Assembly (NCBI GenBank): GCA_025360745.1
Contig: JANYBP010000103.1
Coordinates: 3,992 to 67,991, forward strand
DNA length: 64,000 nt
Direction of reading: 5' to 3'
Origin: a bacterium
Lineage (GTDB): Bacteria > Verrucomicrobiota > Kiritimatiellia > CAIKKV01 > CAIYGI01
Under the pieces are notes generated by a model, which made no database searches, was not told the origin of the DNA, and saw only the letters and a list, made by a program, of their open reading frames with translations. Below are positions 1 through 62,914 of this stretch, piece after piece. A program made the position numbers and the translations under genes. Numbering within the stretch: the first letter of the stretch is position 1; each line of letters begins with the position of its first letter.

Positions 1-399
1 TCCGATCCCGAACGACGGCAAAAATGGGCGCGCTATCTGGAGCAACTGCGTAAAATGCCGCCCACCAACGCGCGCTTTGTCTGCAAGGCCGGCCGCGCCG
101 ATTTTCATCTGGATCCCTACGGAATCGTGCGCCCCTGCGTGATGTTCCCGGGCGCAGGAGCAGACGCGCGCGTTCTGTCGTTCGCGGAGGCCTGGCGGCA
201 GATTTCAACGATGGTTAAAAAGGCTACAATTGCGGTTGACGTTTCATGCCGGTCGTGTAACAATTATGCCTTGTCAAGTTCATGCAGCGCGGTTGCGGAG
301 CTCGAAACCGGATTTTCGGACCGTTGTTCGGAATATTTGTGCGAACTGGGCAGGGCAAGAGCTGATTTATTGAGTAGTAAACGACAGGCATGGAGGTGA
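1..399 (+). CDS. radical SAM enzyme, C-terminal SPASM/twitch domain (5' partial; reading frame open to window edge)
   Basis: Frame 1 has no stop from nt 1 to the TGA at 397-399. The C terminus carries SPASM-like Cys spacing: C-x12-G-x4-C (VCKAGRADFHLDPYGIVRPC), then C-x2-C-x8-C (CRSCNNYALSSSC) and further Cys residues. It is followed 4 nt later by a small Cys-containing ORF. Confidence 0.6.
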   Translation, partial: SDPERRQKWARYLEQLRKMPPTNARFVCKAGRADFHLDPYGIVRPCVMFPGAGADARVLSFAEAWRQISTMVKKATIAVDVSCRSCNNYALSSSCSAVAELETGFSDRCSEYLCELGRARADLLSSKRQAWR

Positions 400-403
400 G
401 CGT

Positions 404-538
404 ATGAAGAAGACGCAGAAAGCCAAGTACGAAAAGCCCCGGGTCAAGGCCGTGGAACTCGCCACGGAGGAAGTGCTGAGCAGTGGCTGTCGTCAGGCCG
501 ATGTTTGCGACGTCAATGGCAGTTTCAAAGGCTATTGA
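404..538 (+). CDS. 44-aa putative RiPP precursor peptide (MKKTQKAKYEKPRVKAVELATEEVLSSGCRQADVCDVNGSFKGY)
   Basis: ATG at 404 with GGAGG 7 nt upstream; TGA at 536-538. It is not in the supplied ORF track because it is under 60 aa. It has a Lys-rich leader and an acidic middle. The C-terminal core has 2 Cys, 3 Ser and a terminal Gly-Tyr. It sits between an rSAM/SPASM gene and an HprK-like kinase gene. Confidence 0.5.
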   Translation: MKKTQKAKYEKPRVKAVELATEEVLSSGCRQADVCDVNGSFKGY

Positions 539-639
539 GTAGCGCTTTGCCGGACGGGGTTTAGTACACCTTTTAGATTAACGAGCCGTTTGCGAAGGAA
601 ATTCGCACGCGGCTTTTTGTATTTCTCAAGGGGCTTTTA

Positions 640-1548
640 GTGGCAGTACAACGATTTTGGATCGGTGGTTTGGCATACACCTACGAGGCGGATTTCGACC
701 TCGACGTCACGATGTGGCCGCCGTTCTACCGGGGCTTCGATCGCCCGCAGGCGCTGCCCGATGCTCTGGAGCTGGAATGGCATGTGCGTTTAGCCGGAAG
801 CGGCGCGTTCAGGCCGACGGGGACGCCCGAGCTGGAATCGGATGCCTGGCGTCTCTGGCGGGAAGGCGGGACGCGTACGATTGCCTTCGAAGGAGCGCCA
901 CATAATCCCCCGCAATGGACGGCCACGATGGATTTGGACGCGGGACGGGCCGAGGTGCGGTGGAATCAGCAGCTGGTGCCGGTCAGGGACGAGAGTCCGC
1001 TCTTCGGCAAGCTTTTCGCGCTTAATCTGGACCGTCTGTTGACGATGTATCGGCTGGCTGCGGGCGGTAGCGGGATGCTTGTGCATGGCGCCGCGGCCGA
1101 TTTCGACGGTCAAGGGTGGCTATTCATGGGCCGTTCGGATCGCGGCAAGAGCACTTTATCCAACCTGCTCAACCAAACCCGGGCCGCGCTTGTATTGAGC
1201 GACGAAAAGGCCATCGTGCGCAAGTTGCGTAAAGACTTCTGGCTCTGCGGCACGCCCTGGCCCAGCAGCGCCGGATTCGCGACGGCGGCCGTTTGCCCGT
1301 TGCGCGGGTTGGTGTTTCTGGAACATGGAATACAAAACGAGTTGATTCCCCTCGATGCGCCGGAGACCATGCGGCGTTTGCTTGCCATGTTCGCCTGTCC
1401 CTGGCACGATCAGTCGCTCTTCGATCCGCTCGTAACGCTGGGCGGCGAAATGGCTCAAGCGCTGCCGGCCTGGGAATTGCGTTTCCTGCCCAACGAGAGC
1501 GTGGCGGCATTCTTGCGCGAGCGGCTGGCGGGCAAACGATCGGGGTGA
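640..1548 (+). CDS. HPr kinase C-terminal-domain-like P-loop protein (stand-alone HprK-related kinase)
   Basis: Walker-A-like GRSDRGKSTLSNLL resembles the HprK C-domain GxSGxGKSE motif. It has no N-terminal HprK domain. The start is a GTG at 640, and the start is uncertain. Confidence 0.55.
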   Translation: MAVQRFWIGGLAYTYEADFDLDVTMWPPFYRGFDRPQALPDALELEWHVRLAGSGAFRPTGTPELESDAWRLWREGGTRTIAFEGAPHNPPQWTATMDLDAGRAEVRWNQQLVPVRDESPLFGKLFALNLDRLLTMYRLAAGGSGMLVHGAAADFDGQGWLFMGRSDRGKSTLSNLLNQTRAALVLSDEKAIVRKLRKDFWLCGTPWPSSAGFATAAVCPLRGLVFLEHGIQNELIPLDAPETMRRLLAMFACPWHDQSLFDPLVTLGGEMAQALPAWELRFLPNESVAAFLRERLAGKRSG

Positions 1549-2857: not shown

Positions 2858-2922
2858 CGTGTTCGGTGTTGATCTATCCCGAACACTCAAACACCGGACA
2901 CCCGAACAGTAGCGAGAGCCAC

Positions 2923-4329
2923 ATGAGTCCCAAAAAAAATAAGCGGAAGCAAGCCGTCGCCATCAAGGTCGTAAAATTCGGCGGCAGTTCGCTGGCCGAT
3001 GCCCGTCAGATCCGCAAGGTCTTCGAGATCGTGCGCGCCGATCCGGAACGGCGTATCGTGGTCGTCTCGGCGCCCGGCAAACGCTCGCCGGAGGACATGA
3101 AGGTCACCGACCTGCTGATCGCGCTGGCCGAAGCCCAGCTCGCGGGCGCGCCCACCGGCGGCGCACTGGATCGCGTGGTCGAACGCTTCCGCGAGATTCA
3201 ACGCGCGCTGGAACTCCCCGCGGCCGTCACCAGCGCCGTTGAGGACGACCTGCGTCGGCGCCTGGCCGGAGATACCACGCACCGCGGCCGCTTTTTCGAC
3301 AACCTCAAGGCCGCCGGCGAGGACAACTGCGCCCGCGTCGTGGCGGCTGTTTTCAACAAACTCGGATTGCCGGCGCATTACGTGGACCCGCGCGAGGCCG
3401 GTTTGCTGCTGAGCGACGACTTCGGTAACGCCACCGTGCTGCCGGAGTCGTTCGACCGCCTGAAGTCGCTGCGCGACACGCCCGATGTCGCGATCTTCCC
3501 GGGCTTCTTCGGCTACACCGTCAAAGGCGAGGTAGCGACCTTCCCGCGCGGCGGATCGGACATCACCGGTTCCATTCTGGCCGCCGCCGTGAAGGCCGAA
3601 TTATACGAGAATTTCACCGATGTGGATTCGGTCTATGCCGTGGACCCGCGCATTGTCCCCGACGCCCGCGCCATCTCGGTCATCACCTATCAGGAAATGC
3701 GCGAACTGGCCTACGCCGGATTCGGCGTCTTTCACGACGAAGCCATCATGCCCGCCGTGCTGGCCAAGATTCCGATCTGCATCAAGAACACCAACCACCC
3801 CGAGGCCCCCGGCACGCGCATCGTGCCCGAGCGTCCCTACGCCTCGGGCGTCGTGGTCGGCATCGTCGGCGCCGATGGTTTCTGTACGCTCGATGTCAGC
3901 AAGTACCTGATGAACCGCGAGATCGGCTTTGGCCGGCGTCTGCTGCAAATCATCGAGGATGAGGGGCTTTCCTACGAACATGCGCCTTCCGGAATAGACA
4001 ACACCTCGGTGATCCTGCGCGAAAAAGATGTGACGCCCGAGATCGAGGCCCGGCTCTGCGAGCGCGTTCGCGACGAACTGGGCGCCAACGACGTCGGCTT
4101 CGAGCACGGCCTGGCGCTGCTCATGATCGTCGGCGAGGGCATGCGTTACACCGTCGGGCTGTCGGCCAAGGCCTGCACGGCGCTGGCCGCCGCCGGGGTC
4201 AATATCGACATGATCAACCAGGGTTCCTCCGAAATCAGCGTCATGTTCGGCATCAAGGCCGCGGATCGTAAACGGGCGATCAAGGCGCTTTACAACGCGT
4301 TTTTCCCGAAAACGCGGGCGGAATCGTGA
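2923..4329 (+). CDS. lysC: aspartate kinase
   Basis: VVKFGGSSLAD amino-acid-kinase signature. C-terminal ACT domains. The ATG at 2923 is preferred over the ORF-track start at 2866. Confidence 0.9.
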   Translation: MSPKKNKRKQAVAIKVVKFGGSSLADARQIRKVFEIVRADPERRIVVVSAPGKRSPEDMKVTDLLIALAEAQLAGAPTGGALDRVVERFREIQRALELPAAVTSAVEDDLRRRLAGDTTHRGRFFDNLKAAGEDNCARVVAAVFNKLGLPAHYVDPREAGLLLSDDFGNATVLPESFDRLKSLRDTPDVAIFPGFFGYTVKGEVATFPRGGSDITGSILAAAVKAELYENFTDVDSVYAVDPRIVPDARAISVITYQEMRELAYAGFGVFHDEAIMPAVLAKIPICIKNTNHPEAPGTRIVPERPYASGVVVGIVGADGFCTLDVSKYLMNREIGFGRRLLQIIEDEGLSYEHAPSGIDNTSVILREKDVTPEIEARLCERVRDELGANDVGFEHGLALLMIVGEGMRYTVGLSAKACTALAAAGVNIDMINQGSSEISVMFGIKAADRKRAIKALYNAFFPKTRAES

Positions 4330-5393
4330 CCACGCCCAGGGAAAATCTTTTGCGCAGCCTGAGGCGGCGCGGTTTCGAAACCGTCCCAGTCGACAGCGGC
4401 GCCTTTTGCGCCTCGCAAATCGAGGCGTTCAAGGCTCGTTTTGGACACGAAGATATCGCCGGATATTTCGGCTCGCCCGTCCGGAATTGCTCGGTGAAAC
4501 AGCGAGCGACCTGGAGCGACCCCGTCAAACTCTACCCGCGCGAAGTATTGCCGGCCAATGCCCGCATCGACGCCATGGGCGTGGCCCATTCCCAACAGCC
4601 CGATTGCTATCACATGACGCGCATGCATCATCCCTTGCAGGGGCAGGAAGTCAGCCTGGACGAGGTGAAAAACTATCCCCTGGCCAGTATTGCGCCGGGC
4701 GCAGGCGAAGCCCTGCGTCAGGTCGCGGATGGCATTCACAGCCGGGGCCTGGCGACCATGGCCCATCAGGCCTGCACCATCTGGGAAACCGCCTGGTACA
4801 TCCGCTCCATGGAGGATCTGATGGCCGATATGATGACCGGCGACGAACGGGCGCAGGTTCATCTCGACCGGGTCACCGCCCACGCGGTCGAATCGATCCG
4901 GACCTCGTCCGGCGCCGGCGTGGATATCGTCCAACTGGGCGACGATATCGGCATGCAGAGCACGATCATGATGAGTCTGGAACTTTGGCGGCATTGGCTC
5001 AAGCCGCGGCTGGCCCAGGTCATCCGGGCCGGCAAGTCCATCAAACCGGATTTGCTGATCTTCTATCATTCATGCGGCTATGTGCTTCCATTCCTCAACG
5101 ACTTGATCGAAATCGGTGTGGATATCCTGAACCCGGTGCAGCCGGAGTGCATGAAGTTCGATGTCGTCCACCGGGAGGTGGGCGGCCGCATCTCTTTCTG
5201 GGGCACCGTCGGCACGCAGAGCACCCTGCCGTTCGGCACGCCCGCGGAGGTCAGGGAGGTCGTCTGGGCCAACCTGCGCGCCTGCGGAAAACAGGGCGGC
5301 ATAGTGATTGCGCCCACCCACATGGTGGAACCGGAAGTCCCCTGGGAGAACCTGCTGGCCATGAAGCAGGCCTGCGAAACCTTCCGTCTCTGA
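4326..5393 (+). CDS. uroporphyrinogen decarboxylase (URO-D/MtaA) family protein
   Basis: TIM-barrel URO-D-like sequence over its whole length. The GTG start overlaps the lysC stop, giving an operon hom-lysC-URO-D-like. Confidence 0.6.
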   Translation: MTTPRENLLRSLRRRGFETVPVDSGAFCASQIEAFKARFGHEDIAGYFGSPVRNCSVKQRATWSDPVKLYPREVLPANARIDAMGVAHSQQPDCYHMTRMHHPLQGQEVSLDEVKNYPLASIAPGAGEALRQVADGIHSRGLATMAHQACTIWETAWYIRSMEDLMADMMTGDERAQVHLDRVTAHAVESIRTSSGAGVDIVQLGDDIGMQSTIMMSLELWRHWLKPRLAQVIRAGKSIKPDLLIFYHSCGYVLPFLNDLIEIGVDILNPVQPECMKFDVVHREVGGRISFWGTVGTQSTLPFGTPAEVREVVWANLRACGKQGGIVIAPTHMVEPEVPWENLLAMKQACETFRL

Positions 5394-5412: not shown

Positions 5413-6954
5413 TCAGCGAATATCCGCGACCGGTTCGCGGCCGGGGGCGTCGAGCCCGCGCCGTTCGAGCAGCGAGCCTTCCAGCCTGTAGAGGGCGATA
5501 TAGGCGTCGAGATGCGTCACGATCGCCAGGCTCTCGGTGATCTGGCTGTTCAACAGATCCCGCGCCGCCACGGCCACCAGCAGGGCTGTCGATTTTCCGA
5601 CCAGCAACTTCCCATTTTCCGCTTCCAGCACCTCTTCCTGAAGCTGCCGCGCCGCCGAAGTGGCCGCCACCTGTTCGCGTGAACGGACCACCTCCACATA
5701 GGCCGAGCGCACGTCCACTTCGGCCAGTTGCTTCAGGTTGTCCATGGCCTCGCGAGTCTGATCGAGGCTGTAATCCGCCCGCCGCCGCCTGGCATGGGCG
5801 TCGCGATTGCCCAGCGCATATTCGAACTGCAGCCCGAACGATAGGTCGCTGGCGTTGCCCTTAAGATCGCTGACCGAGCGCCCGAACGAATCGCCGTAGC
5901 CTGTTTTTCCAAGGTTGACGAAGGCATCCAGCCGCGGCAGCAGGCCGTTTTTCGTTTTCACGATTTCCAACTCGCCGCGGCGGACGGATAAACGCGCCTG
6001 GTTGAGATCCGGACGCATCCGCATGGCCACGGCCACATGTGCGCCGACGTCGTCCAGGGGTTCCTTCGGAACCGGCGGGGCGTCCTTCAGGACGATCTCG
6101 CGGTCCCATCCCCCGGCGCCGGGCGGATTGACCAGTTGGATCATTCTAAGGCGGCCTTTTTCCATGGCGCCTTGCGCATCGATCAGAAACTCGCGGCGCA
6201 AGGCCACTTCGGCCTCGGCCGATTTCAATTCCACGCGCGAGAGTTTGCCGACGCGGATGCGCGCCGCGATTTCGTCGCGCTGCTGTTCCGCCACCGCCAG
6301 GGATTGCTTCACGATCTCCAACTGCCTGCGCGCCAGAGCCAGACTCCAGTAGGCGGTTTCGACCTGCGCCACAAAGTTCTCGGTATAACCGCGCAATTCG
6401 TATTCCGTCACCCGCGTGTCGAGGCGGGCCTGCCGCAGGCTGGCCAGATTGACCGCCGTGCCAAAGCCATTGAGCAGCGACTGGCTCGCGGACAGGCCCA
6501 CCCGCGTCGCTGCCTGACGGTCGCTGTAGAGCGTCGAGTTGTCTATTTCAGTCGTTCCTTGCAGCCCGATGCGCGTGCCGGTCGGAAGCAACTCGGAGAT
6601 CCCCAGCGCGCCGGAGATGCTGTCGGAATTGACCTGGTTGGTGCTGGAAAAAGGCGTGATCTGCGCGTTGTTGGCCCTGGTCTTTTGCGCCTGCGCGGTC
6701 AGACTGGGATCGAAGGCCGCAACGGCCTGTTGCTCGAAGGTTTTCTGAATGGCCGGATTCCAGCGCTGCACACGCAGGGCCGGGTTGTTCTCCAGCGAGA
6801 TCAACAGGGCGTCACGCAGGGTGAGTTCCACCGACGCCCTCGACGCGACACCCACCGCCCCCGTGGACGCGGAAGGCGCCGGCGCCGCGGAAGCCAGGCC
6901 GGCGCCGGACAGCAACATGCCCGCGAAAGCAATGGCGCAATAAATAATCTTCAT
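5413..6954 (-). CDS. RND efflux outer membrane factor (TolC/OprM family)
   Basis: Signal peptide and two-repeat OEP architecture. It is last in the MFP-RND-OMF operon. Confidence 0.85.
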   Translation of the reverse strand: MKIIYCAIAFAGMLLSGAGLASAAPAPSASTGAVGVASRASVELTLRDALLISLENNPALRVQRWNPAIQKTFEQQAVAAFDPSLTAQAQKTRANNAQITPFSSTNQVNSDSISGALGISELLPTGTRIGLQGTTEIDNSTLYSDRQAATRVGLSASQSLLNGFGTAVNLASLRQARLDTRVTEYELRGYTENFVAQVETAYWSLALARRQLEIVKQSLAVAEQQRDEIAARIRVGKLSRVELKSAEAEVALRREFLIDAQGAMEKGRLRMIQLVNPPGAGGWDREIVLKDAPPVPKEPLDDVGAHVAVAMRMRPDLNQARLSVRRGELEIVKTKNGLLPRLDAFVNLGKTGYGDSFGRSVSDLKGNASDLSFGLQFEYALGNRDAHARRRRADYSLDQTREAMDNLKQLAEVDVRSAYVEVVRSREQVAATSAARQLQEEVLEAENGKLLVGKSTALLVAVAARDLLNSQITESLAIVTHLDAYIALYRLEGSLLERRGLDAPGREPVADIR

Positions 6955-7011
6955 GATTCGTGCCTGCTCAGGTTTGTGACAAGTGAACAGTAAACAGTGA
7001 ACGGTGAACAG

Positions 7012-10000
7012 TCAAACCGAGTTCGCCTTCACTGCTTGCCGTTCACTGTTCACTTCCCCGCTGTTAAAATGGCGATGGGTCGCCATCTGGACCCTTTCCA
7101 TATAGAGATAGAACACCGGGGTGACATAAAGCGTCAGGGTTTGCGAAAACAACAGTCCGCCGACCACCGCCAGTCCGAGCGGCTGGCGCGCTTCGCCGCC
7201 GGCGCCGTAGCCGAAGGCGATGGGCAGGCCGCCCATCAGCGCCGCCATGGTGGTCATCATGATCGGACGGAAGCGGATCATGCAGGCCTCGTGGATCGCC
7301 TCGTCGGCCGCCTTGCCGCCCCGGCGCGCCTCGATCGCGAAGTCAACCATCATAATGCCGTTCTTTTTCACCAGGCCCACCAGCATGATGATGCCGACGA
7401 AGGCGTAGATCGAAAGTTCGGCGTTGAAGAGCAGCAGGGTCACCAGCGCGCCGAAACCCGCGAAAGGCAGGGCGGAGAGAATCGTGATCGGATGCCAGAA
7501 GTTCTCATAGAGGATGCCCAGCACAATGTAAATGACCACGATCGCGAGTATCAGCAGGATGCCCATGCTCTTGATGGAATTTTGAAACGCCTGCGCCTCG
7601 CCCTGGAAATTGCCCGAGACCCCGCCGCCGGCCAGTTGCCGTTCCATGATCTTGTCCACCTGTTTGACCGCCTCGCCGATGGAGACGCCGGGTTTCAAAT
7701 TGAACGAAATCGTCACCGACGGGAGCTGGCCGAAGTGGTTGATCGTCAACGGTCCGACGCCCGGCCGCAGGTCGGCCGCGGCGTTGATCGGCACCAGCAG
7801 TCCCGAGGAGGAGCGCACATTCAGGAGCGGCAGCGCGGCCGCGTTCTGCTGGTATTCCGGCATCAGTTCCAGGATCACCTGGTACTGGTTGTTGGGCGCG
7901 TAAATCGTGGAAGCCTGACGGGAACCGTAGGCGTTGTACAAGGCGTTTTCGATCTGCGCGACCGACAGGCCCATGGACGAGGCCAGGTCGCGGTTGATCT
8001 TGATGTCGAGTTCGGGGTTCTTCAACTGCATGTCGCTGTTCACGTCCTGAAACCCCGGCAGGGCGGCCATGGCCTCCATCAACCTGGCGGTCTGCCGGTA
8101 GAGTTCGTCCGCGTCCGTCGCCTGTAGCGTATATTGGTATTTGCTCTTGGACGACTGGCCGCCGATCGGGATGGTCGGAGGAATCACCGCGTAGGCCCGG
8201 ATACCCGGCACGGAGGCCAGGAACGGCTGCAATTTGCGAATCACGCCGTCCACGCTCAATTCCCGCTGGGCGCGTGGTTTCAGGCGGACCATCATGCGTC
8301 CGACGTTTGCGCCGCTACTGCCGCGCGAGCCGCCGCTCGACATGAAAGCTTCGATGTTGGGATCCTTGCGGACGAGTTCCGCCAGCGCCTGCTGATGTGT
8401 CAGCATCGACTTGAAAGAGATGCCTTCCGCGGCTTCGGTGGTGATGGTGAACATGTCGCGATCCTCGCTGGGAATAAATCCCATCGGCACGATCGTGAAC
8501 AGCCAGCCCGTCAATCCCAGCGCCAGAATCGCCAGCGTCATGGTGCGGGCGGGCCGGCGCAAAACCCACCAGAGGGTGCGGTGGTAAAACTCCAGCATGG
8601 CTTGGAAACCGCGCTCCGTGACGGCATAGATGTGGCCATGGCGAATCGAGGCCGGCGCGCGCAAAAAGCGGCTGCACAACATGGGCGTCAGGGTCAGCGA
8701 AATCACGCCCGAAATCAGCACCGCCGCGCCGATGGTCACCGCGAACTCCCGGAAAATCCGGCCCATCAGGCCGCCCATGAACAGGACGGGAATGAACACC
8801 GCCGCCAGCGACAGCGTCATCGAGACGATGGTGAAGCCGATTTCCCGCGCCCCGTCCAGAGCCGCCTCCATCCGTTGCTTGCCCATTTCCATGTGCCGCA
8901 CGATATTTTCGAGCATCACGATGGCGTCGTCCACCACGAAGCCGATGGCCAGGGTCAGGGCCATCAGCGACAGGTTATCCAGACTGTAATTCAACACGTT
9001 CATCGCCGCGAAGGTGCCGATCAGCGACATCGGCAGCGCCAGCGCCGGTATCACGGTCGCCGAGACGTTGCGCAGAAACACAAAGATGACCAGCACCACC
9101 AGCAAGAAGGTCAGAACCAGGGTGAACTCGGCGTCGTGAACCGAGGCGCGAATCGACAGGCTGCGGTCGAACAAGGTGGTCAGCGTGACCGCCGCCGGCA
9201 GTTTTTTCTGAAGCTCGGGCATCAGCGCCTTCACGGCGTCGGCCACTTCCACCGTGTTCTTGCCAGGCTGCCGCATGATGGCCAGAATCACGGCGCGCTG
9301 CTGGCCGGCCGCCGTGCAATACCAGGCGGCGACCTTGTCGTTTTCCACGCTGTCCGTGACCCGGCCGAGGTCGCCCAGTCGCACCGGCGCGCCTTTGCGA
9401 TAGGTCACGATCAGCGAGCGATAGCCGTCCGCCTTCATGATCTGGCCGTCGGTCTGAATCGTGACCGCCCGGTACGGGCCGTAGAGGATGCCGGAGGGCT
9501 GGTTCACGTTGCCCTGGGCGATCGCGTCGGCCACCTCGTTGATGCCGATTCCGTGGGCGGCCAGCGCCATCGGGTCAACCTGGATGCGCACGGCATACTT
9601 CTGGGAGCCGAAAACCTGGACCTGGGCCACGCCGTCCACCATCGATATCCGCTGCGCCATCAGCGTCTGTCCGTATTCGTCCAGCGCCGACAACGGCAGC
9701 GTCGGGCTGGTCAGCACCAGATAGAGAAAGGGCGAGTCGGCCGGGTTGGATTTTTGAAAAGAGGGCGGTGACGGCATGTCGGCCGGCAATTGCCGCCCGG
9801 CGCGGGCAATCGAAGCCGTCACGTCCAGAGCCGCGGCGTCAATGTCGCGATCCAGGGCGAAGGTCAGCGTGATCTGCGAACTGCCCAGAGCGCTGGAGGA
9901 GTTCATGGACTCCAGGCCGGCGATCATCGAGAACTGCTTTTCGAGCACGGTGGCCACCGAGGAGGCCATCGTTTCGGGACTGGCGCCCGGCAGGGAGGCC

Positions 10001-10143
10001 GAAACCTGGATCGTGGGATAATCCACCGTGGGCAGGTCGCTGACCGGCAGACTCCGGAAGCCGACGATTCCAGCGAGCAGAATGCTCGCCATGACCAGCG
10101 TGGTCGTAACGGGGCGGCGGATAAAAAGGGCGGCGATATTCAA
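7012..10143 (-). CDS. efflux RND transporter permease subunit (AcrB/HAE1 family)
   Basis: 1043 aa, 12-TM AcrB-like architecture. The N terminus is MNIAALFIRRPVTTTLVMASILLAG. Confidence 0.95.
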   Translation of the reverse strand: MNIAALFIRRPVTTTLVMASILLAGIVGFRSLPVSDLPTVDYPTIQVSASLPGASPETMASSVATVLEKQFSMIAGLESMNSSSALGSSQITLTFALDRDIDAAALDVTASIARAGRQLPADMPSPPSFQKSNPADSPFLYLVLTSPTLPLSALDEYGQTLMAQRISMVDGVAQVQVFGSQKYAVRIQVDPMALAAHGIGINEVADAIAQGNVNQPSGILYGPYRAVTIQTDGQIMKADGYRSLIVTYRKGAPVRLGDLGRVTDSVENDKVAAWYCTAAGQQRAVILAIMRQPGKNTVEVADAVKALMPELQKKLPAAVTLTTLFDRSLSIRASVHDAEFTLVLTFLLVVLVIFVFLRNVSATVIPALALPMSLIGTFAAMNVLNYSLDNLSLMALTLAIGFVVDDAIVMLENIVRHMEMGKQRMEAALDGAREIGFTIVSMTLSLAAVFIPVLFMGGLMGRIFREFAVTIGAAVLISGVISLTLTPMLCSRFLRAPASIRHGHIYAVTERGFQAMLEFYHRTLWWVLRRPARTMTLAILALGLTGWLFTIVPMGFIPSEDRDMFTITTEAAEGISFKSMLTHQQALAELVRKDPNIEAFMSSGGSRGSSGANVGRMMVRLKPRAQRELSVDGVIRKLQPFLASVPGIRAYAVIPPTIPIGGQSSKSKYQYTLQATDADELYRQTARLMEAMAALPGFQDVNSDMQLKNPELDIKINRDLASSMGLSVAQIENALYNAYGSRQASTIYAPNNQYQVILELMPEYQQNAAALPLLNVRSSSGLLVPINAAADLRPGVGPLTINHFGQLPSVTISFNLKPGVSIGEAVKQVDKIMERQLAGGGVSGNFQGEAQAFQNSIKSMGILLILAIVVIYIVLGILYENFWHPITILSALPFAGFGALVTLLLFNAELSIYAFVGIIMLVGLVKKNGIMMVDFAIEARRGGKAADEAIHEACMIRFRPIMMTTMAALMGGLPIAFGYGAGGEARQPLGLAVVGGLLFSQTLTLYVTPVFYLYMERVQMATHRHFNSGEVNSERQAVKANSV

Positions 10144-11282
10144 GGTTTGGCGGCCTCGTTTTTCGTGCCGCCGTCCTTGATCTCGACCTTGGAGCCCGGC
10201 GCCAGCCGCAACTGGCCGTCCGTTACCACCCGTTCGCCGGCGGCTACGTCTCCGGGCGCGAGCACGGTGTCCTCATCCATGATGCGGTTCACGCTGACCA
10301 CGCGATCCTCGACCCTCTGGTCCGGCTTGACCACGTAAAGGTAGGTTCCCTTCTGACCGGTGAGCACGGACGACGACGGCACGACCAGGGCATTTGTTTC
10401 CACGAGCAGCGTCAATTCGACACGCACGAACTGGCCCGGCCACAGGCGCTTGACCTCATTTGAAAAAGTTCCCTTGATCTGCAGCGTGCCGGTGGTCTTA
10501 TCCACCTCGTTATTGATGAAGGTGACGATTCCGGATTCGGGCAGGTTGGTGTCGCCGCCGATCATGGCCTTGACGAGCAGCCCGTTGGCGGAGGCCGGCA
10601 TCAGCCGCAGCAGATCCTGCTGCGGCACGGCAAACGAGACGCGGGCGGGGACAATGCGGTTCAGGACCAGCAGGACGGTTTCGTTGGCCATGACGACATT
10701 GCCGGGATCGACCAGGCGGGCGCCGGTGCGGCCGTCGAAGGGCGCGCGGATGGTGCAATATTCAAGCATCAGGCGCGCGTTATCCTCGGCCGCCTCGTCC
10801 GCCTGGACCGTGGCCTGCATGGCCAGCGCCGCCGTGTGCGCCTGGTCGCGCGCATCCTCCGCCGCAAAGCCTTTCTTAAGCAGCTCGTCCTGGCGTCCGG
10901 CCTCCTTGGCGGCGTTGTCGCTCTGAGCCCTGTCTTTGGCCAGATTGGCCTCCGCCTGGCGCAGCGCCGACAGCGCCGGCCTGGCGTCGAGGGTGAAAAG
11001 CAGGTCGCCGGTATGGACATCCTGGCCTTCCTTGAAATAAACGTTGGTCACCAGCCCGCCGACCTGCGGCTTGACCGCCGCCGTCTCGTAGGCTTCCACA
11101 GTGCCAAACGTCCGCAAAGTCACCGGCATGGCCTTCTGGACCACCTCCGCCATGGTCACGGGAACCGGCCCCGGCCCGCCACCCGCCCCGGCCTTGCCCC
11201 CGGCCCGGCTTTTTTCGTAAACCCGCCAGCCCCCCAGCCCGGCCACACCCACCGCCAGCAGAATCAGAATCGTTTTTTTCAT
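10140..11282 (-). CDS. efflux RND transporter periplasmic adaptor (membrane fusion protein)
   Basis: HlyD/AcrA-like coiled-coil and beta-barrel domains. It overlaps the RND gene by 4 nt. Confidence 0.9.
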   Translation of the reverse strand: MKKTILILLAVGVAGLGGWRVYEKSRAGGKAGAGGGPGPVPVTMAEVVQKAMPVTLRTFGTVEAYETAAVKPQVGGLVTNVYFKEGQDVHTGDLLFTLDARPALSALRQAEANLAKDRAQSDNAAKEAGRQDELLKKGFAAEDARDQAHTAALAMQATVQADEAAEDNARLMLEYCTIRAPFDGRTGARLVDPGNVVMANETVLLVLNRIVPARVSFAVPQQDLLRLMPASANGLLVKAMIGGDTNLPESGIVTFINNEVDKTTGTLQIKGTFSNEVKRLWPGQFVRVELTLLVETNALVVPSSSVLTGQKGTYLYVVKPDQRVEDRVVSVNRIMDEDTVLAPGDVAAGERVVTDGQLRLAPGSKVEIKDGGTKNEAAKP

Positions 11283-12722: not shown

Positions 12723-15098
12723 GTGGGGCGGGTGAATACTAACGGTTCCCAGATCTCCGTGGCGCCCGACGATCCGTCGCGCCGTCGCGCCGTCGCGGCG
12801 CTTTTGAAAAAGGGCGGACACGTTCATTTAGCGGGCATCGGCGGCATCGGCATGGCCGGGCTGGCGGTGCTCTTGCGGGGACGGGGTTTCATGGTTTCGG
12901 GCTGCGATCTGGCCGCCACGCCGCTTACCGTCTGGCTGACGGCCCGCAGTATGACGGTTTTCCATGGGCATGGCGCCGAACATGTGCTGGCGCCCGCGTC
13001 GCCGGTGGATTGGCTGATTTATAGCGCGGCGCTCTCCGCGGACTCCCCGGAATTGGCGGCGGCGCGCGCGGCGGGCATTCCGCTCCATCGGCGCGGCGAG
13101 GTCCTGCCGGCGCTGGTGACGGGGCCGGGCTCGGTCACCGTCAGCGGCACGCACGGCAAGACCACCACCACAACCCTGCTGACCCTGATTCTGCGCGCGG
13201 CGGGGCGCGATCCCACCTTCTGCATCGGCGGCGAGGTGGCGGCTTTGGGCGGTCCGGCCGGGGTCGGGCGCGACCCGTGGATTGTCGCCGAGGCCGACGA
13301 GAGCGACGGCACGGCCGCGCTCTACCGGCCCGCGCTGGCCGTGGTGACCAACATCGAATTCGACCACATGGAGCATTTCGCCGATGTCACGGCCTTTGAA
13401 GCCTGCTTCCAAACCCTCATGCTGAATGCGGGACGCGTGGTCTACGGCTGCGACGATCCGCGCGCGGCGCGACTGGGCGCGGCCTGTCCCGGCGCCCGCT
13501 CGTTCGGGTTGTCCGCGGAGGCGAATGTACGGGCGGTGGATGTGGCCCTCGAACCAATGGCGGTGCGCTTCCGCATGCAGCGCGACAATCTGGCGCTGGG
13601 CACGCTGCGCCTGCCGCTGCCGGGCCGGCACAATCTGCTCAATGCCCTGGCGGCCGCGGCGGCGGCCTTCGAACTGGGGCTGGATTTCGACGCCGTGCGG
13701 CGGGGTTTGGAGACGGCCGAACTGCCACGCCGGCGCTTCGAACGATTTGTGGAGCGCGAGGATATTCAGGTGGTTTCCGATTACGCCCATCATCCCAGCG
13801 AAATCGCGGCGCTGATTTCCGCGGCGCGCGCGCTGGGCCGGCGGATCGTGGCCGTCTTTCAGCCGCACCGCTTCACCCGCACGCGCGCGCTGGGGACGGA
13901 TTTTCCGGCGGCTTTCGCCGGGGTGTCCGATTTGATTTTGACGCCGGTCTATGCCGCCTCCGAAACGCCGCTGGAAGGCGGTACGATCTGGGATCTCTAC
14001 GGCCACTTCCGCCGCTCCGCCGCCGGGCCGGCGCGGGTCTCGGTGGCGGACAGTCTGGCGGGCGCCTGGGCCGCGCTGCGCACGCGGCTGGGCGCGGGCG
14101 ATCTGCTGCTGGTGGTTGGCGCGGGCGACGTGGAACGCATTGCCTGCTGGGCGCGCGAGGCGCTGGTCGGCGTGCCGGTCGCGGCGCTTAGTCCCGTGGC
14201 AAGCTGGCAACGCGCCGTACTGGCGCTGCCGCTGAGTCAGGCCACGGTGGTGCGCGCACATGAGCCGCTGGCGAAACACACGACGCTCGGCGTCGGCGGC
14301 CCGGCCGATCTATGGGCGGAAGTGGGAACGCCGGCGGACCTGAATGTACTGCTCGATTGGGCGGCGGGGGCGGATGTGCCATGGCGGGTGCTGGGCGGCG
14401 GGAGCAATACCTGGGCGGCGGATGACGGCGTACGCGGACTGACCATCCGGCTGAGCGGGCCCGCATTCGATTCACTGGCCTGGACCACCGACAGCGTGAC
14501 CGCGGGCGCGGCGCTGCCGGTGACGGCGTTGGCCGCGCAGGCGGCGGCGCGCGGGCTGGGCGGTCTGGAATTTTTGCACGGCATCCCGGGCACGCTGGGC
14601 GGCGCGGCGCGCGGCAATGCCGGGGCCTGGGGACGCGCCTTCGAAAATGTGCTGGCGGAATTGGTGACGCGCGAGCCCGACGGCCGTGAACGCGTTTGGA
14701 CCCGTTCGGAACTCGACTATCGCTATCGCGAATGTCCATGCCTGGCTGGCCGCGTGGTCTTGCGGGCGGTCCTGCGGCTGACTCCGGCGGAACCCGCGGC
14801 GCTGGCGGCGACGCTGCGCGACCAGGCGGCGCGGCGCGAATGGCAGCGCGGCCTGCGTTCGGCGGGCTCGGTCTTTCGCAATCCCCCCGGCGATTTTGCC
14901 GGACGCTTGCTGGAAGCCTGCGGCTGCAAAGGCATGACGCTGGGCGGCGCGCGCTTTTCCGAACGGCACGCCAACGTGATTGTGACCGCCGCGGACGCCA
15001 CGGCCTCCGACGTGCGCGCGCTCCTGGAACTGGCGCGCGATACCGTGCAGCGCCAAACCGGAATCCTGCTGGCGCCGGAATACTCTTTGCTTAAGTAG
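12723..15098 (+). CDS. murC/murB: bifunctional UDP-N-acetylmuramate--L-alanine ligase / UDP-N-acetylenolpyruvoylglucosamine reductase (MurC-MurB fusion)
   Basis: The N-terminal roughly 470 aa are MurC (IGGIGMAGLA, GTHGKTTTT P-loop, Mur ligase middle and C domains). The C-terminal roughly 300 aa are MurB (FAD-binding PCMH domain EPLAKHTTLGVGGPAD, plus the MurB C-domain). Confidence 0.85.
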   Translation: MGRVNTNGSQISVAPDDPSRRRAVAALLKKGGHVHLAGIGGIGMAGLAVLLRGRGFMVSGCDLAATPLTVWLTARSMTVFHGHGAEHVLAPASPVDWLIYSAALSADSPELAAARAAGIPLHRRGEVLPALVTGPGSVTVSGTHGKTTTTTLLTLILRAAGRDPTFCIGGEVAALGGPAGVGRDPWIVAEADESDGTAALYRPALAVVTNIEFDHMEHFADVTAFEACFQTLMLNAGRVVYGCDDPRAARLGAACPGARSFGLSAEANVRAVDVALEPMAVRFRMQRDNLALGTLRLPLPGRHNLLNALAAAAAAFELGLDFDAVRRGLETAELPRRRFERFVEREDIQVVSDYAHHPSEIAALISAARALGRRIVAVFQPHRFTRTRALGTDFPAAFAGVSDLILTPVYAASETPLEGGTIWDLYGHFRRSAAGPARVSVADSLAGAWAALRTRLGAGDLLLVVGAGDVERIACWAREALVGVPVAALSPVASWQRAVLALPLSQATVVRAHEPLAKHTTLGVGGPADLWAEVGTPADLNVLLDWAAGADVPWRVLGGGSNTWAADDGVRGLTIRLSGPAFDSLAWTTDSVTAGAALPVTALAAQAAARGLGGLEFLHGIPGTLGGAARGNAGAWGRAFENVLAELVTREPDGRERVWTRSELDYRYRECPCLAGRVVLRAVLRLTPAEPAALAATLRDQAARREWQRGLRSAGSVFRNPPGDFAGRLLEACGCKGMTLGGARFSERHANVIVTAADATASDVRALLELARDTVQRQTGILLAPEYSLLK

Positions 15099-22185: not shown

Positions 22186-22243
22186 TTCCCGCCCAGCCTT
22201 GCTTGACAGCCTCAGTCCGGTCGCGTAATTTGTTCGCCTTCCG

Positions 22244-22327
22244 GTGGGGTACCGAAGTGGTCAAACGGGGCAGACTGTAAATCTGCTAGCATCGCTTTCG
22301 TTGGTTCGAATCCAGCCCCCACCACCA
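22244..22327 (+). tRNA. tRNA-Tyr (GTA), type II with long variable arm
   Basis: Acceptor stem GGTGGGG/CCCCACC. Anticodon loop CTGTAAA. T-loop TTCGAAT. CCA is encoded. Confidence 0.85.
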
Positions 22328-56720: not shown

Positions 56721-56835
56721 ATCCCGGCAGCGCGCTACTCTCCCATGACTACTGCCACAGTACCATCGCCGCAGAGGCCCTTCACTTCCGTGTTCGGTAT
56801 GGGAACGGGTGTTACTTCCTCGCTATGGCCACCGG
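56721..56835 (-). rRNA. rrf: 5S ribosomal RNA
   Basis: The reverse complement reads CCCGGTGGCCATAGCGAGGAAGTAACACCCGTTCCCATACCGAACACGGAAGTGAAG... Confidence 0.9.
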
Positions 56836-56911
56836 GAAAAATTAATATTTAAATTAATTGACCGGCTTCGAGATGGGCATCCAAAGGCTAGCGCTAAAAA
56901 GCGACCGATGG

Positions 56912-59876
<2,965 letters not shown>

Positions 59877-60028
59877 GATAAATCGGTCGAATCTCAGCGC
59901 TTGTAGTCCTTAAAAGATGCCCATCTCGATGCACATGTCAAAGAGCAAACCGCTTGCGCGGCGGAAACTGTCGGCGCCAACGCGCTCCCAGCCTCCTAAA
60001 AATCGTTTTGACCAGCGGTCCACCTGCA

Positions 60029-60105
60029 TGGTGGGCGTGCCTGGAGTCGAACCAGGGACCTTGTCCTTATCAGGGACACGCTCTAACCAACTGAGCTACA
60101 CGCCC
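60029..60105 (-). tRNA. tRNA-Ile (GAT)
   Basis: The reverse complement reads GGGCGTGTAGCTCAGTTGGTTAGAGCGTGTCCCTGATAAGGACAAGGTCCCTGGTTCGACTCCAGGCACGCCCACCA. Confidence 0.9.
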
Positions 60106-60212
60106 TACTTCGCGCTTCGGCTGCGCCTCGCGCTTCGTAGGGCGAGCCCGCGTTGTCCGGCTTGCCATGCGAAGCTCAAGTTCGCCTGCGGCGAACGCAG
60201 AGCGAAGCATAG

Positions 60213-60285
60213 TGGAGGCAACCGGGCTCGAACCGGTGGCCCCGAGCTTGCAAAGCTCGTGCTCTACCAACTGAGCTATGCCCCC
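60213..60285 (-). tRNA. tRNA-Ala (TGC) with G3:U70
   Basis: The reverse complement reads GGGGGCATAGCTCAGTTGGTAGAGCACGAGCTTTGCAAGCTCGGGGCCACCGGTTCGAGCCCGGTTGCCTCCA. The anticodon is TGC. A G3-U70 wobble is present. Confidence 0.9.
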
Positions 60286-60513
60286 GAGGTTCAGAACGCA
60301 TCCGGTATGCCGACGCCAGTCCCCAAAGGACCGGCTCCACGGCGTCCGCTGTTCCGAATAGCCAACAGCCCGCACAGATTACCATGCGAGCCTAGGCCGC
60401 TGTTTCGGTTCGAAAGAGGTGCGGTGAGTCCAGTGTTCCGTCTTCGGCCGGACGCCGAAGCGTCCGACCGATCGACCCTGGTTGAACTTCCGGGCTTGCG
60501 CCCTTCAGAACAA

Positions 60514-62087
<1,574 letters not shown>

Positions 62088-62914
62088 GAATAATGATTCC
62101 AATGCCGCCACCGGTTTGACCCGGCAGCGGACTTATCGATCGCTATCTCATCTTTTAAACCCGAAGCCGCTTGCGCGACCCCGGGCGACGGAGCACCTTC
62201 TTCACCGCACCGCTTCCGAATCGAAGCAGTGCCTCAGGCTATTCGGTTGTCAAAGAACCAAGACCCCGGACTTCACCCGAATCGAACGCGCGTTTTCGTT
62301 TCACACACGGGATTCCGTTAACAAGTCCGGCGTCAGTCGCGAAAGAGAAAGATATAAAAACACGCCGGAGACGTCAACGAAAGATTGACGGAATTGTAGG
62401 GTTTTTATGAAACGTACTAAATATGCCAGCAAACAGATGCATTCTGTATGCTCCATATGGGGAAATTTTGCGCGGCGGCTGACGCCGCCTGGGCACGCAG
62501 CGCGCCCGCACACCCTCGAAGGCCTCCCGTTTGCAAGCCATCACGCACGCCCCGCCCCGGCAACACCCCGTTCGCCGCCGTCATACACCATATCCCAACC
62601 TGCCATCTTACGGTTCCAGGGGCAGGTATCGCCAGACCCCCTTTTTATTAGCTATTATTTAAGACGCACATCTTCCAGCAACATCACGGTACCATAATAA
62701 AATTTAGCAGGACTCGTGCCACTTACAGACGCATTGCGAACAGAGCGGCCGCCAAGGCATCGAAATCTTCGCCGTTCAAGGACTCGACGCAAGCCGCCTC
62801 CGGCGTCGCACCCACGGTCGCGCATCCAGCTCGGATGCGCAAACCAAACGTCCGGGTTCCGTTTTCAGTTTTTAGGTGTGCAAGGGGTTGCACGCGCTCA
62901 ACCGTTTTGCTTCA

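Follow-up and report, generated by a model that had tools for sequence, protein, structure and literature searches.

Three genes packed closely at the very edge of a 64-kb stretch of bacterial DNA (the window, by which we mean the whole stretch analysed) raise the question of whether they belong to a single biosynthetic pathway and, if so, what that pathway might make. Lying on the plus strand at positions 1-1548, they encode the end of a radical S-adenosylmethionine (rSAM) enzyme with a SPASM-type domain, a 44-residue peptide, and a P-loop protein that resembles HPr kinase/phosphorylase (HprK/P) and the ScmC family. An earlier note on this DNA had read them as the tail of a cluster for a peptide made by the ribosome and modified after translation (RiPP), combining an rSAM maturase with an HprK-like kinase. 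The three co-directional open reading frames (ORFs) were re-found in place, with the motifs that the note had described, and we conclude that they are probably the 3' end of a five-gene RiPP operon encoding, in order, a protein of peptidase family C25, a PqqD-family protein, the rSAM/SPASM enzyme, the 44-residue precursor and the ScmC-like enzyme. The features of this end of the operon are as follows.

1-399, plus strand: 3' end of the rSAM/SPASM maturase gene (last 132 codons and stop of a 360-residue gene), from translation and identity to contig L001
392-396, plus strand: Shine-Dalgarno sequence GGAGG of the precursor gene, within the end of the rSAM gene, from sequence
404-538, plus strand: precursor peptide gene, 44 residues (MKKTQKAKYEKPRVKAVELATEEVLSSGCRQADVCDVNGSFKGY), from a gene call on independent contigs, purifying selection and homologues in the same slot
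585-618, plus strand: terminator- or attenuator-like hairpin, GCCGTTTGCGAA-GGAAA-TTCGCACGCGGC followed by TTTTT, from RNA folding and conservation in relatives
640-1548, plus strand: ScmC-like HPr-kinase/PEPCK-fold P-loop protein, two domains, 302 residues, GTG start, from the ORF, its motifs and PF27840 annotation

The operon and its relatives

Frame 1 has no stop between the window edge and the TGA at 397-399 and encodes 132 residues; the precursor ORF starts at 404, 4 nt past this stop, and a spacer of 101 nt separates it from the ScmC-like gene. The upstream genes are supplied by contig L001, a 5.4-kb contig of the Logan assembly of SRR23617162 that was found by exact-protein look-up, is 100% identical to positions 1-1600 of the window and adds 3.5 kb upstream. 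The rSAM fragment is identical (100%) to L001:3487-3885, and L001 holds the full 360-residue gene, including, upstream of the window's first nucleotide, a radical SAM core, C39-CFR-C43-QH-C46 (CX3CX2C, the motif to which the SAM-cleaving [4Fe-4S] cluster binds), that is invariant in an alignment of 8 orthologues. The full protein scores 74.3 bits against PF04055 (cut-off 29.5) and belongs to the radical SAM superfamily; because L001, identical over 1600 nt, carries this N-terminal core, the truncated gene of the window can be identified as the radical SAM gene that the earlier note had taken it to be. A PqqD-family gene (L001:2479-2802) precedes it, its stop abutting the rSAM start at 2803, and its product scores 58.3 bits against PF05402 (cut-off 23.4), as expected of a RiPP recognition element (RRE). 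What precedes PqqD in L001 is the C-terminal part (816 residues) of a large repeat-containing protein, in which divergent InlB B-repeats and a bacterial TSP3 repeat were recognised; its equivalent in the related locus L003 is a secreted protein of 2576 residues with a Peptidase_C25 domain (E 9e-47). A PqqD-like RRE and a protease, both suspected by the earlier note to lie upstream of the window, are thus found there.

The same arrangement recurs in other lineages. L003, the closest genome-derived relative (74% ScmC identity), has the same order down to hom and lysC, and the order rSAM - peptide - ScmC is kept in L003, L029 and L030 (70-75% ScmC identity). Other loci read PqqD - rSAM - 60-residue peptide - ScmC (L032 and L033), PqqD - rSAM - (uncalled peptide) - ScmC - small peptidase (L037), and C25 - PqqD - rSAM - 57-residue peptide - ScmC - NTP_transf_5 - ABC (L039, an NCBI assembly). 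A metagenome scan that used a sub-alignment of the ScmC-like family as query returned at least 347 relatives, from which 80 loci were taken for co-occurrence counts. An rSAM gene lies directly upstream of ScmC in 58/58 loci with at least 500 nt of upstream sequence, PqqD is present in 35/35 loci with at least 1.9 kb and Peptidase_C25 in 26/26 loci with at least 3 kb; downstream, a small peptidase gene follows in 43 of the 61 loci with at least 500 nt, its product being a signal peptidase I of archaeal/SipW type (TIGR02228, 54.6 bits against a cut-off of 51.85). The order C25 - PqqD - rSAM - precursor - ScmC-like - (signal peptidase I) is nearly fixed across hundreds of uncultured bacteria, and synteny of the HprK-like gene with rSAM, whose absence the earlier note would have taken as a refutation, holds in every close relative as well as in these metagenome loci. 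The 3' boundary that it had drawn at the HprK-like gene is borne out too: hom comes next in the window and L003, a recN-like gene in L029 and L030, and because this neighbour differs between lineages we place the end of the cassette at 1548.

Hosts of the cassette include genomes of the Planctomycetota-Verrucomicrobiota-Chlamydiota (PVC) superphylum and of Chloroflexia, along with many unassigned contigs from sediment, soil and freshwater metagenomes. Two Chloroflexia metagenome-assembled genomes (MAGs), L022 and L027, carry an rSAM gene (395-412 residues), a 70-73-residue peptide with a different three-Cys core, ...DV(M/L)GTNCFTSS...C...CF(S/N), and a ScmC-like gene; PqqD was detected in L022 only, and downstream in L022 lie genes for a 2318-residue protein with a C25-like region and for an NTP_transf_5 protein. 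In L039, a MazE/PemK toxin-antitoxin pair (8612-9194) sits between the NTP_transf_5 and ABC genes, with transposase genes just beyond, a context suggesting that the cassette can belong to mobile DNA.

The precursor family and the rSAM enzyme

The precursor gene is real and under purifying selection. Over 42 codons compared among four lineages (the window, L003, L029 and L030), 11-16 differences are synonymous and 3-7 nonsynonymous, and the changes fall mostly on the four residues between the two Cys and on the tail. The four peptides share the form MKK(T/A)QKAKY(E/V)KP(R/Q)VKAVELATEEVLSSGCR-xxxx-CDVNGSFKG-tail; that of the window has a leader of the type YxKPxV...EL..EEVL..GC(R), a two-Cys core and a C-terminal Tyr, and an equivalent of its Shine-Dalgarno sequence (GGAGGTG/GGGAGGTG) is kept before the peptide ATG in L003 and L029. 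For the earlier note, lack of conservation of the ORF at 404-538 in homologous loci would have been a refutation; a homologous peptide gene lies between the rSAM and ScmC-like genes in 60/62 rSAM-containing metagenome loci. With the radical SAM core and the synteny present too, none of the refuting outcomes that the note had listed was found.

Sixty distinct precursor sequences, from the metagenome loci and the other loci together, define a family that no Pfam or NCBIfam model matches. Its consensus has a Lys/Arg-rich N-terminus, the motif Y-E-K-P-x-L-R-x-I-E-L-x-A-E-E-V-L-x-x-G-C-K, 12-17 variable residues and an end of the form C-x4-5-C-x3-4-G-S. The distance from the Tyr to the first Cys is exactly 20 residues in 57 of the 60 precursors, the first Cys stands in GC(K/R) in 52, and three Cys are present in 55, every rSAM-associated precursor having at least two; the last residue is Ser in 57 and Thr, Tyr (the window) and Asn in one each. 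Between these fixed Cys the core is variable. When the peptides are aligned from both ends, the window clade differs from the consensus by deletion of the loop between the first and second Cys (giving GC-R-x4-C-DVN-GS) and by addition of a short C-terminal extension (FKG and the tail). The window clade is a reduced variant of the family: its precursors have two Cys and are extended at the C-terminus, the signal-peptidase gene is missing, and one auxiliary-cluster Cys of its rSAM enzyme has moved.

Two other readings of the window peptide were tried and rejected. A Cx3D motif of the freyrasin type, suggested by CRQAD, has Asp in the window and L003 and Asn in L029 and L030 (Cx3[DN]), and is not seen in the wider family; a lipoprotein lipobox at ...LAVG/C (the slash marking the cut) was dropped on account of the acidic residues that precede it.

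Between the precursor and ScmC-like genes, RNA folding reveals a hairpin with a 12-bp stem containing one mismatch, followed by the T-tract listed above. A simple terminator scan missed it owing to the internal mismatch, and folding together with comparison found it: hairpin and T-tract are common to the window, L003, L029 and L030, and in L003 the base of the stem has changed on both sides from G-C to A-U. Peptide operons commonly over-produce the precursor by means of a partial terminator placed behind its gene, and the hairpin would make the precursor transcript more abundant than that of the kinase.

The rSAM enzyme of the window is clearly orthologous to those of the metagenome loci (median 276 bits). 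Its fragment carries seven Cys, at residues 28, 46, 83, 86, 95, 109 and 114, arranged as C28-x12-G-x4-C46 and C83-x2-C86-x8-C95 with C109 and C114 beyond, and we count these residues as an instance of the seven-Cys SPASM/twitch pattern (Cx9-15Gx4C ... Cx2Cx5Cx3C ... C), in which the Cys serve two auxiliary clusters. The window clade has Cx2Cx8C where relatives have Cx2Cx5Cx2C: the third SPASM Cys is replaced by Ser92 (window 274-276) in the window, L003 and L030, and Cys109 (window 325-327) is gained in the window clade four residues before the last conserved Cys, the total remaining seven. This relocation coincides with the two-Cys, rather than three-Cys, precursor of the window clade. Homology to SPASM proteins is visible solely through near full-length alignments to MftC and PqqE; the fragment alone yields sub-threshold matches to the C-termini of NirJ2 and MftC (E 2e-4 to 3e-3). 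The score against the MftC model (TIGR03962; E 1e-26, 94 bits against a cut-off of 265) does not place the enzyme in mycofactocin biosynthesis, and further matches to the family models of StsB, SkfB, AlbA and PapB reach no curated cut-off. The nearest solved structures are those of PqqE and SkfB.

The strongest available evidence for the site of rSAM action comes from a sister cassette without this enzyme. Twenty-odd loci in MAGs of Kiritimatiellia, Lentisphaerae and Verrucomicrobiota (within L004-L028, and L035) read PATR-repeat protein - C25 - PqqD - peptide - ScmC-like - ABC exporter - NTP_transf_5. Their peptides (YEAPxVxExxLDxGGNYV...LGNSIIE) keep the YxxPxV leader motif, with a core of the form ...LDxGGNYV...LG(N/T)S(I/P)(I/D)(E/P), and contain no Cys (0/22). 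Because every rSAM-linked precursor has at least two Cys and the rSAM-less peptides have none, the rSAM enzyme probably acts on cysteines; and because the sister loci retain PqqD, the peptide and ScmC, the constant core of these systems is PqqD with the ScmC-like enzyme, not rSAM. The accessory set of the sister loci (HprK-like enzyme, NTP_transf_5, ABC exporter and PqqD) is the set that decorates Firmicutes lasso peptides, here with no lasso cyclase.

The ScmC-like enzyme and its place among known systems

The 302-residue protein carries the motifs H149-G, G164-RSDRGKST (the P-loop), D188-E and GTPWPSSAG, and precomputed annotation assigns PF27840 'ScmC' to it and to all 35 word-indexed homologues. 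A profile of the family aligns with HprK (1jb1; E 8e-5) along a 52-residue stretch that takes in the His-Gly, P-loop and Asp-Asp segment, in keeping with the fold and the order of P-loop, His and Asp-Asp motifs of the HPr kinase/phosphorylase catalytic domain. Two residues, the P-loop Lys170 and Asp188, do not vary among 109 family representatives; at least 90% of these keep His149 and the remaining P-loop positions (G164.S166-G167.G169.T172), and the GTPW motif is also kept. Because the P-loop, His and Asp motifs persist across these representatives, the family has retained the catalytic apparatus of an HprK-type phosphotransferase. By analogy with its relatives, the protein is a predicted peptide kinase, which would phosphorylate the precursor.

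The protein is nonetheless not an orthologue of HprK/P, because it falls below every cut-off (PF07475, 10.9 bits against 33.3; TIGR00679, 12.4 against 240). Taken alone, it scores 27.4 bits against ScmC, for which the cut-off is 125, and matches HprK models at E 0.05-0.3, and family members give weak yet consistent NCBIfam matches to ScmC, HprK_rel_A, HprK_rel_B and HPr(Ser) kinase. Over 218 residues, its N-terminal beta domain can be aligned with PEPCK. Searched with the family profile, 1.84 billion cluster representatives yielded 20,265 matches at E<1e-3 and 981 at E<1e-30, and the window protein is about equally distant from the rSAM-containing and rSAM-less sets.

Several known systems share part of this design. 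The closest in composition, SynChlorMet (SCM; ScmC TIGR04249, ScmD TIGR04248, ScmE/ScmF TIGR04250/04251), has been described in silico only and likewise joins a PqqD-family protein, rSAM/SPASM enzymes and a ScmC-type protein; ScmC is the best NCBIfam match of the window protein, and ScmD is among the best of PqqD. All of its cut-offs are failed, however (ScmC as above; ScmD, 27.7 against 100; ScmE and ScmF, 66.6 and 48.8 against 400), and they are failed by a typical member, L055, as well. SynChlorMet has two rSAM genes where the cassette has one, and the cassette family is set apart further by its recognisable precursor, by the C25 peptidase linked to it and, in most cases, by a signal peptidase I. 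A further in-silico precedent is the NCBIfam 'HPr-rel-A system' with a PqqD chaperone.

Lasso peptides provide the biochemical precedent, as HprK homologues phosphorylate linear lasso precursors at their C-terminal Ser, and the phosphate then receives hexoses through a nucleotidyltransferase (PMC8498205). Like the loci of these kinases (the paeninodin PadeK type; the pseudomycoidin kinase with its nucleotidyltransferase), the cassette places an HprK-type P-loop enzyme beside a PqqD-family RRE and a small precursor, most often with a hydroxyl residue at its C-terminus (Ser in 57/60), and the sister loci and L039 also encode NTP_transf_5 and an ABC exporter. Unlike them, it lacks a lasso cyclase or B2, has an rSAM/SPASM enzyme and a Cys-rich core instead, adds an N-terminal beta domain to the kinase and, in the window, ends its peptide in Tyr. 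With thioether RiPPs (the sactipeptides of subtilosin/AlbA and SkfB, the ranthipeptides of PapB/CteB), and with PqqE and MftC, it shares CX3CX2C, a SPASM-type domain at the C-terminus that is rich in Cys, a PqqD RRE encoded by its own gene and a core that contains Cys; no known member of those classes, however, is paired with an HprK-like enzyme or with a C25 or SipW-type peptidase, and the Cx2Cx8C of the window clade is likewise unlike them. The distance from HprK/P of carbon catabolite control is greater still: identity is about 12-19%, the N-terminal domain differs, the gene lies in a peptide-modification operon, and nothing points to HPr as substrate. The cassette would work like a lasso-type kinase grafted onto a sacti- or ranthi-type rSAM pathway, and it is a member of neither class.

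A search of the literature found no paper describing the cassette, although most subscription journals lay outside its coverage and prior work is possible. ScmC returned unrelated acronyms only; nothing was found on SynChlorMet, on HPr kinase with SPASM, or on peptide strings such as EEVLAVGCK, and nothing relevant on PqqD with C25, gingipain or SipW. In the RiPP literature found, HPr kinase appears in the lasso context only, the RRE-Finder papers name no kinase, and the Latham review is silent on the cassette. We therefore regard the cassette as an uncharacterised variant of known RiPP logic, whose parts are singly familiar and for whose combination we found no characterised example. The suggestion of a possible new variant made by the earlier note stands in this respect and must be tempered in another, as the family is not rare (see the 981 representatives above) and has in-silico precedent in SynChlorMet and HPr-rel-A.

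A proposed pathway and its alternatives

We tentatively propose that these loci define a widespread RiPP class whose products might combine Cys cross-links made by the rSAM enzyme with a phosphate, perhaps further glycosylated, on a C-terminal Ser, built by a trio of PqqD, rSAM/SPASM and HprK/PEPCK-fold proteins and processed by gingipain-family and SipW-type peptidases. The peptide here would exemplify the precursor type of ScmC-like cassettes, and the window lineage would represent a minimal form of it, with two Cys, a different acceptor (Tyr or an internal Ser) and a re-wired auxiliary Fe-S site. With more confidence, we read the operon as one that most likely yields a short peptide with cross-links and, probably, a phosphate. 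In the mechanism that we consider the likeliest, PqqD would serve as the RRE and bind the leader at YxKPx(V/L)...EL..EEVL, after which the rSAM/SPASM enzyme would use the core Cys, most likely for thioether cross-links of the sacti or ranthi type. The ScmC-like enzyme would transfer phosphate from ATP to a hydroxyl at or near the C-terminus, the terminal Ser in most precursors, as the HprK-homologous lasso-peptide kinases do; in the window peptide, the candidate acceptors are the invariant Ser39 of ...NGS... and the C-terminal Tyr44. In most relatives the leader could be removed by the SipW-type signal peptidase I encoded just downstream, cutting at A-x-G/C, which is plausible because the -3 and -1 residues before the first Cys (A-x-G) are small. 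The C25 peptidase family cuts after Arg or Lys, and the C25 protein might also, or instead, cut after GC(K/R).

Several observations weigh against this mechanism or against parts of it. The upstream half of the operon lies outside the window itself and was supplied by contig L001, and no exporter or nucleotidyltransferase of the kind that the cassettes carry was found in the 64-kb window. The profile checks that the earlier note had recommended came out divided, with PF04055 and PF05402 above their cut-offs and the Pfam SPASM and HprK models below theirs on the cassette proteins: PF13186 gave no match at E<=0.1 with the full rSAM protein or at E<=1 with the fragment, and PF07475 fell short as reported above. 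The best curated matches of the rSAM enzyme are NirJ2 and MftC, not any known thioether synthase. The window peptide ends in Tyr, not Ser, and the sister peptides end in ...S-I-I-E or ...D-P-P, so that a strict C-terminal Ser rule fails across the ScmC family. The window P-loop, GRSDRGKST, has Asp167 (1138-1140) where about 90% of the family has Gly and where its three closest relatives read GRSG(R/H)GKST; occurring in the same genome as a Tyr-ending peptide, this substitution may reflect changed specificity or weakened kinase function in the window lineage. The large, repeat-rich C25 protein, with its repeats of surface-protein type, may be a partner or target and not the leader peptidase. 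That the ScmC-like enzyme is a kinase, which residue accepts the phosphate and how the Cys are linked are all argued by analogy.

Two alternatives accept the operon and reinterpret its product, and we consider both unlikely. In one, the ScmC-like enzyme leaves no phosphate on the peptide: it might phosphorylate Ser transiently, the phosphate being eliminated to leave dehydroalanine as it is by lanthipeptide synthetases of classes II-IV, or activate the C-terminal carboxylate, or act as a phosphorylase or as an ATP-dependent scaffold, giving a dehydro, lanthionine-like or amidated C-terminus. HprK/P is bifunctional, both kinase and phosphorylase, the N-terminal domain of the ScmC-like protein aligns with PEPCK and not with the HprK N-domain, and the near-invariant Gly-Ser lies 4-5 residues past a Cys, a geometry that permits addition of Cys to dehydroalanine. 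The cassette contains no lyase or cyclase gene, however; NTP_transf_5 in the sister loci and L039 fits decoration of a retained phosphate, and the only characterised RiPP relatives keep the phosphate on the peptide (PMC8498205). In the other alternative, the product is a peptide-derived cofactor, or a modified peptide at the service of the C25 surface protease, whether as its inhibitor, as a chaperone resembling a pro-peptide or as its anchor, and the rSAM enzyme modifies the C-terminal residue, the way MftC works in mycofactocin synthesis. The linkage to Peptidase_C25 in all 26 loci with enough sequence, and in the rSAM-less loci too, is consistent with such a role, and so is the fact that the enzyme aligns over nearly its full length with the cofactor maturases MftC and PqqE. 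The last residues of the window peptide are ...KGY, which may be set beside the ...GVY of MftA. Against it, the family consensus ends in Gly-Ser and not Tyr, the MftC score is 94 bits where 265 are needed, the loci lack the dehydrogenase partners typical of cofactor systems, and secreted bioactive RiPPs typically have, as here, a variable core framed by fixed Cys.

Two further explanations have far lower probability. That the locus is a lasso-peptide cluster or its remnant, with the HprK-like kinase and PqqD (B1) as accessories, is very improbable. The best NCBIfam match of PqqD is the lasso PqqD chaperone, the YxxPxL-type motif of the leader resembles lasso leaders, and the sister loci share their kinase, nucleotidyltransferase and ABC genes with the accessory set of Firmicutes lasso peptides. 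The PqqD score of 30.7 bits, though, is below the lasso cut-off of 80, the core lacks the Gly/Ala-1 ... Asp/Glu-7-9 ring pattern, and no Asn-synthetase-like cyclase or transglutaminase-like B2 appears among the accounted-for ORFs from C25 to hom (L001, L003) or in the fetched relatives, no dedicated hidden Markov model search for C or B2 having been made. That three genes are adjacent by chance, the small ORF being no gene, has a probability close to nil: although the Pfam and NCBIfam matches of the window fragments alone are all sub-cut-off, the order is kept in more than 60 independent loci of distant lineages, the precursor is under purifying selection and has a Shine-Dalgarno site, and the genes follow one another closely or abut. 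Synteny and selection together rule this explanation out.

A defined precursor family, with its leader motif, fixed Cys pattern and terminal Gly-Ser, is now tied to an operon in hundreds of environmental genomes, which provides a testable biosynthetic hypothesis. Should the chemistry prove to be as predicted, peptide O-phosphorylation by HprK homologues would reach beyond lasso peptides, and largely uncultured bacteria would be a source of a new cross-linked scaffold. Strictly linked as it is to a gingipain-family surface protease, the cassette may have some role other than making an antibiotic.

Beyond the cassette, the window holds the following features.

1556-2857, downstream of the ScmC-like gene: hom (homoserine dehydrogenase)
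2866-4329, downstream of hom: lysC (aspartokinase gene)
4326-5393, plus strand, after lysC: uroporphyrinogen decarboxylase (URO-D) family protein
5413-11282, minus strand: tripartite resistance-nodulation-division (RND) efflux system (OEP outer-membrane factor, AcrB-family pump, HlyD-type adaptor)
12723-15098, plus strand: 791-residue ORF, MurC-like Mur ligase domains fused to MurB (FAD-binding and MurB_C)
22243-22327: tRNA-Tyr
56722-62089, minus strand: complete rRNA operon (16S, tRNA-Ala, tRNA-Ile, 23S, 5S)

The URO-D family gene has no evident link to the cassette. The RND efflux system lies 4 kb downstream of it; the same outer-membrane gene occupies the same place in L003, and in the unrelated locus L037 an RND pump stands beside the cassette. 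The ORFs that follow the Mur fusion resemble, by size and sequence, cell-division genes.

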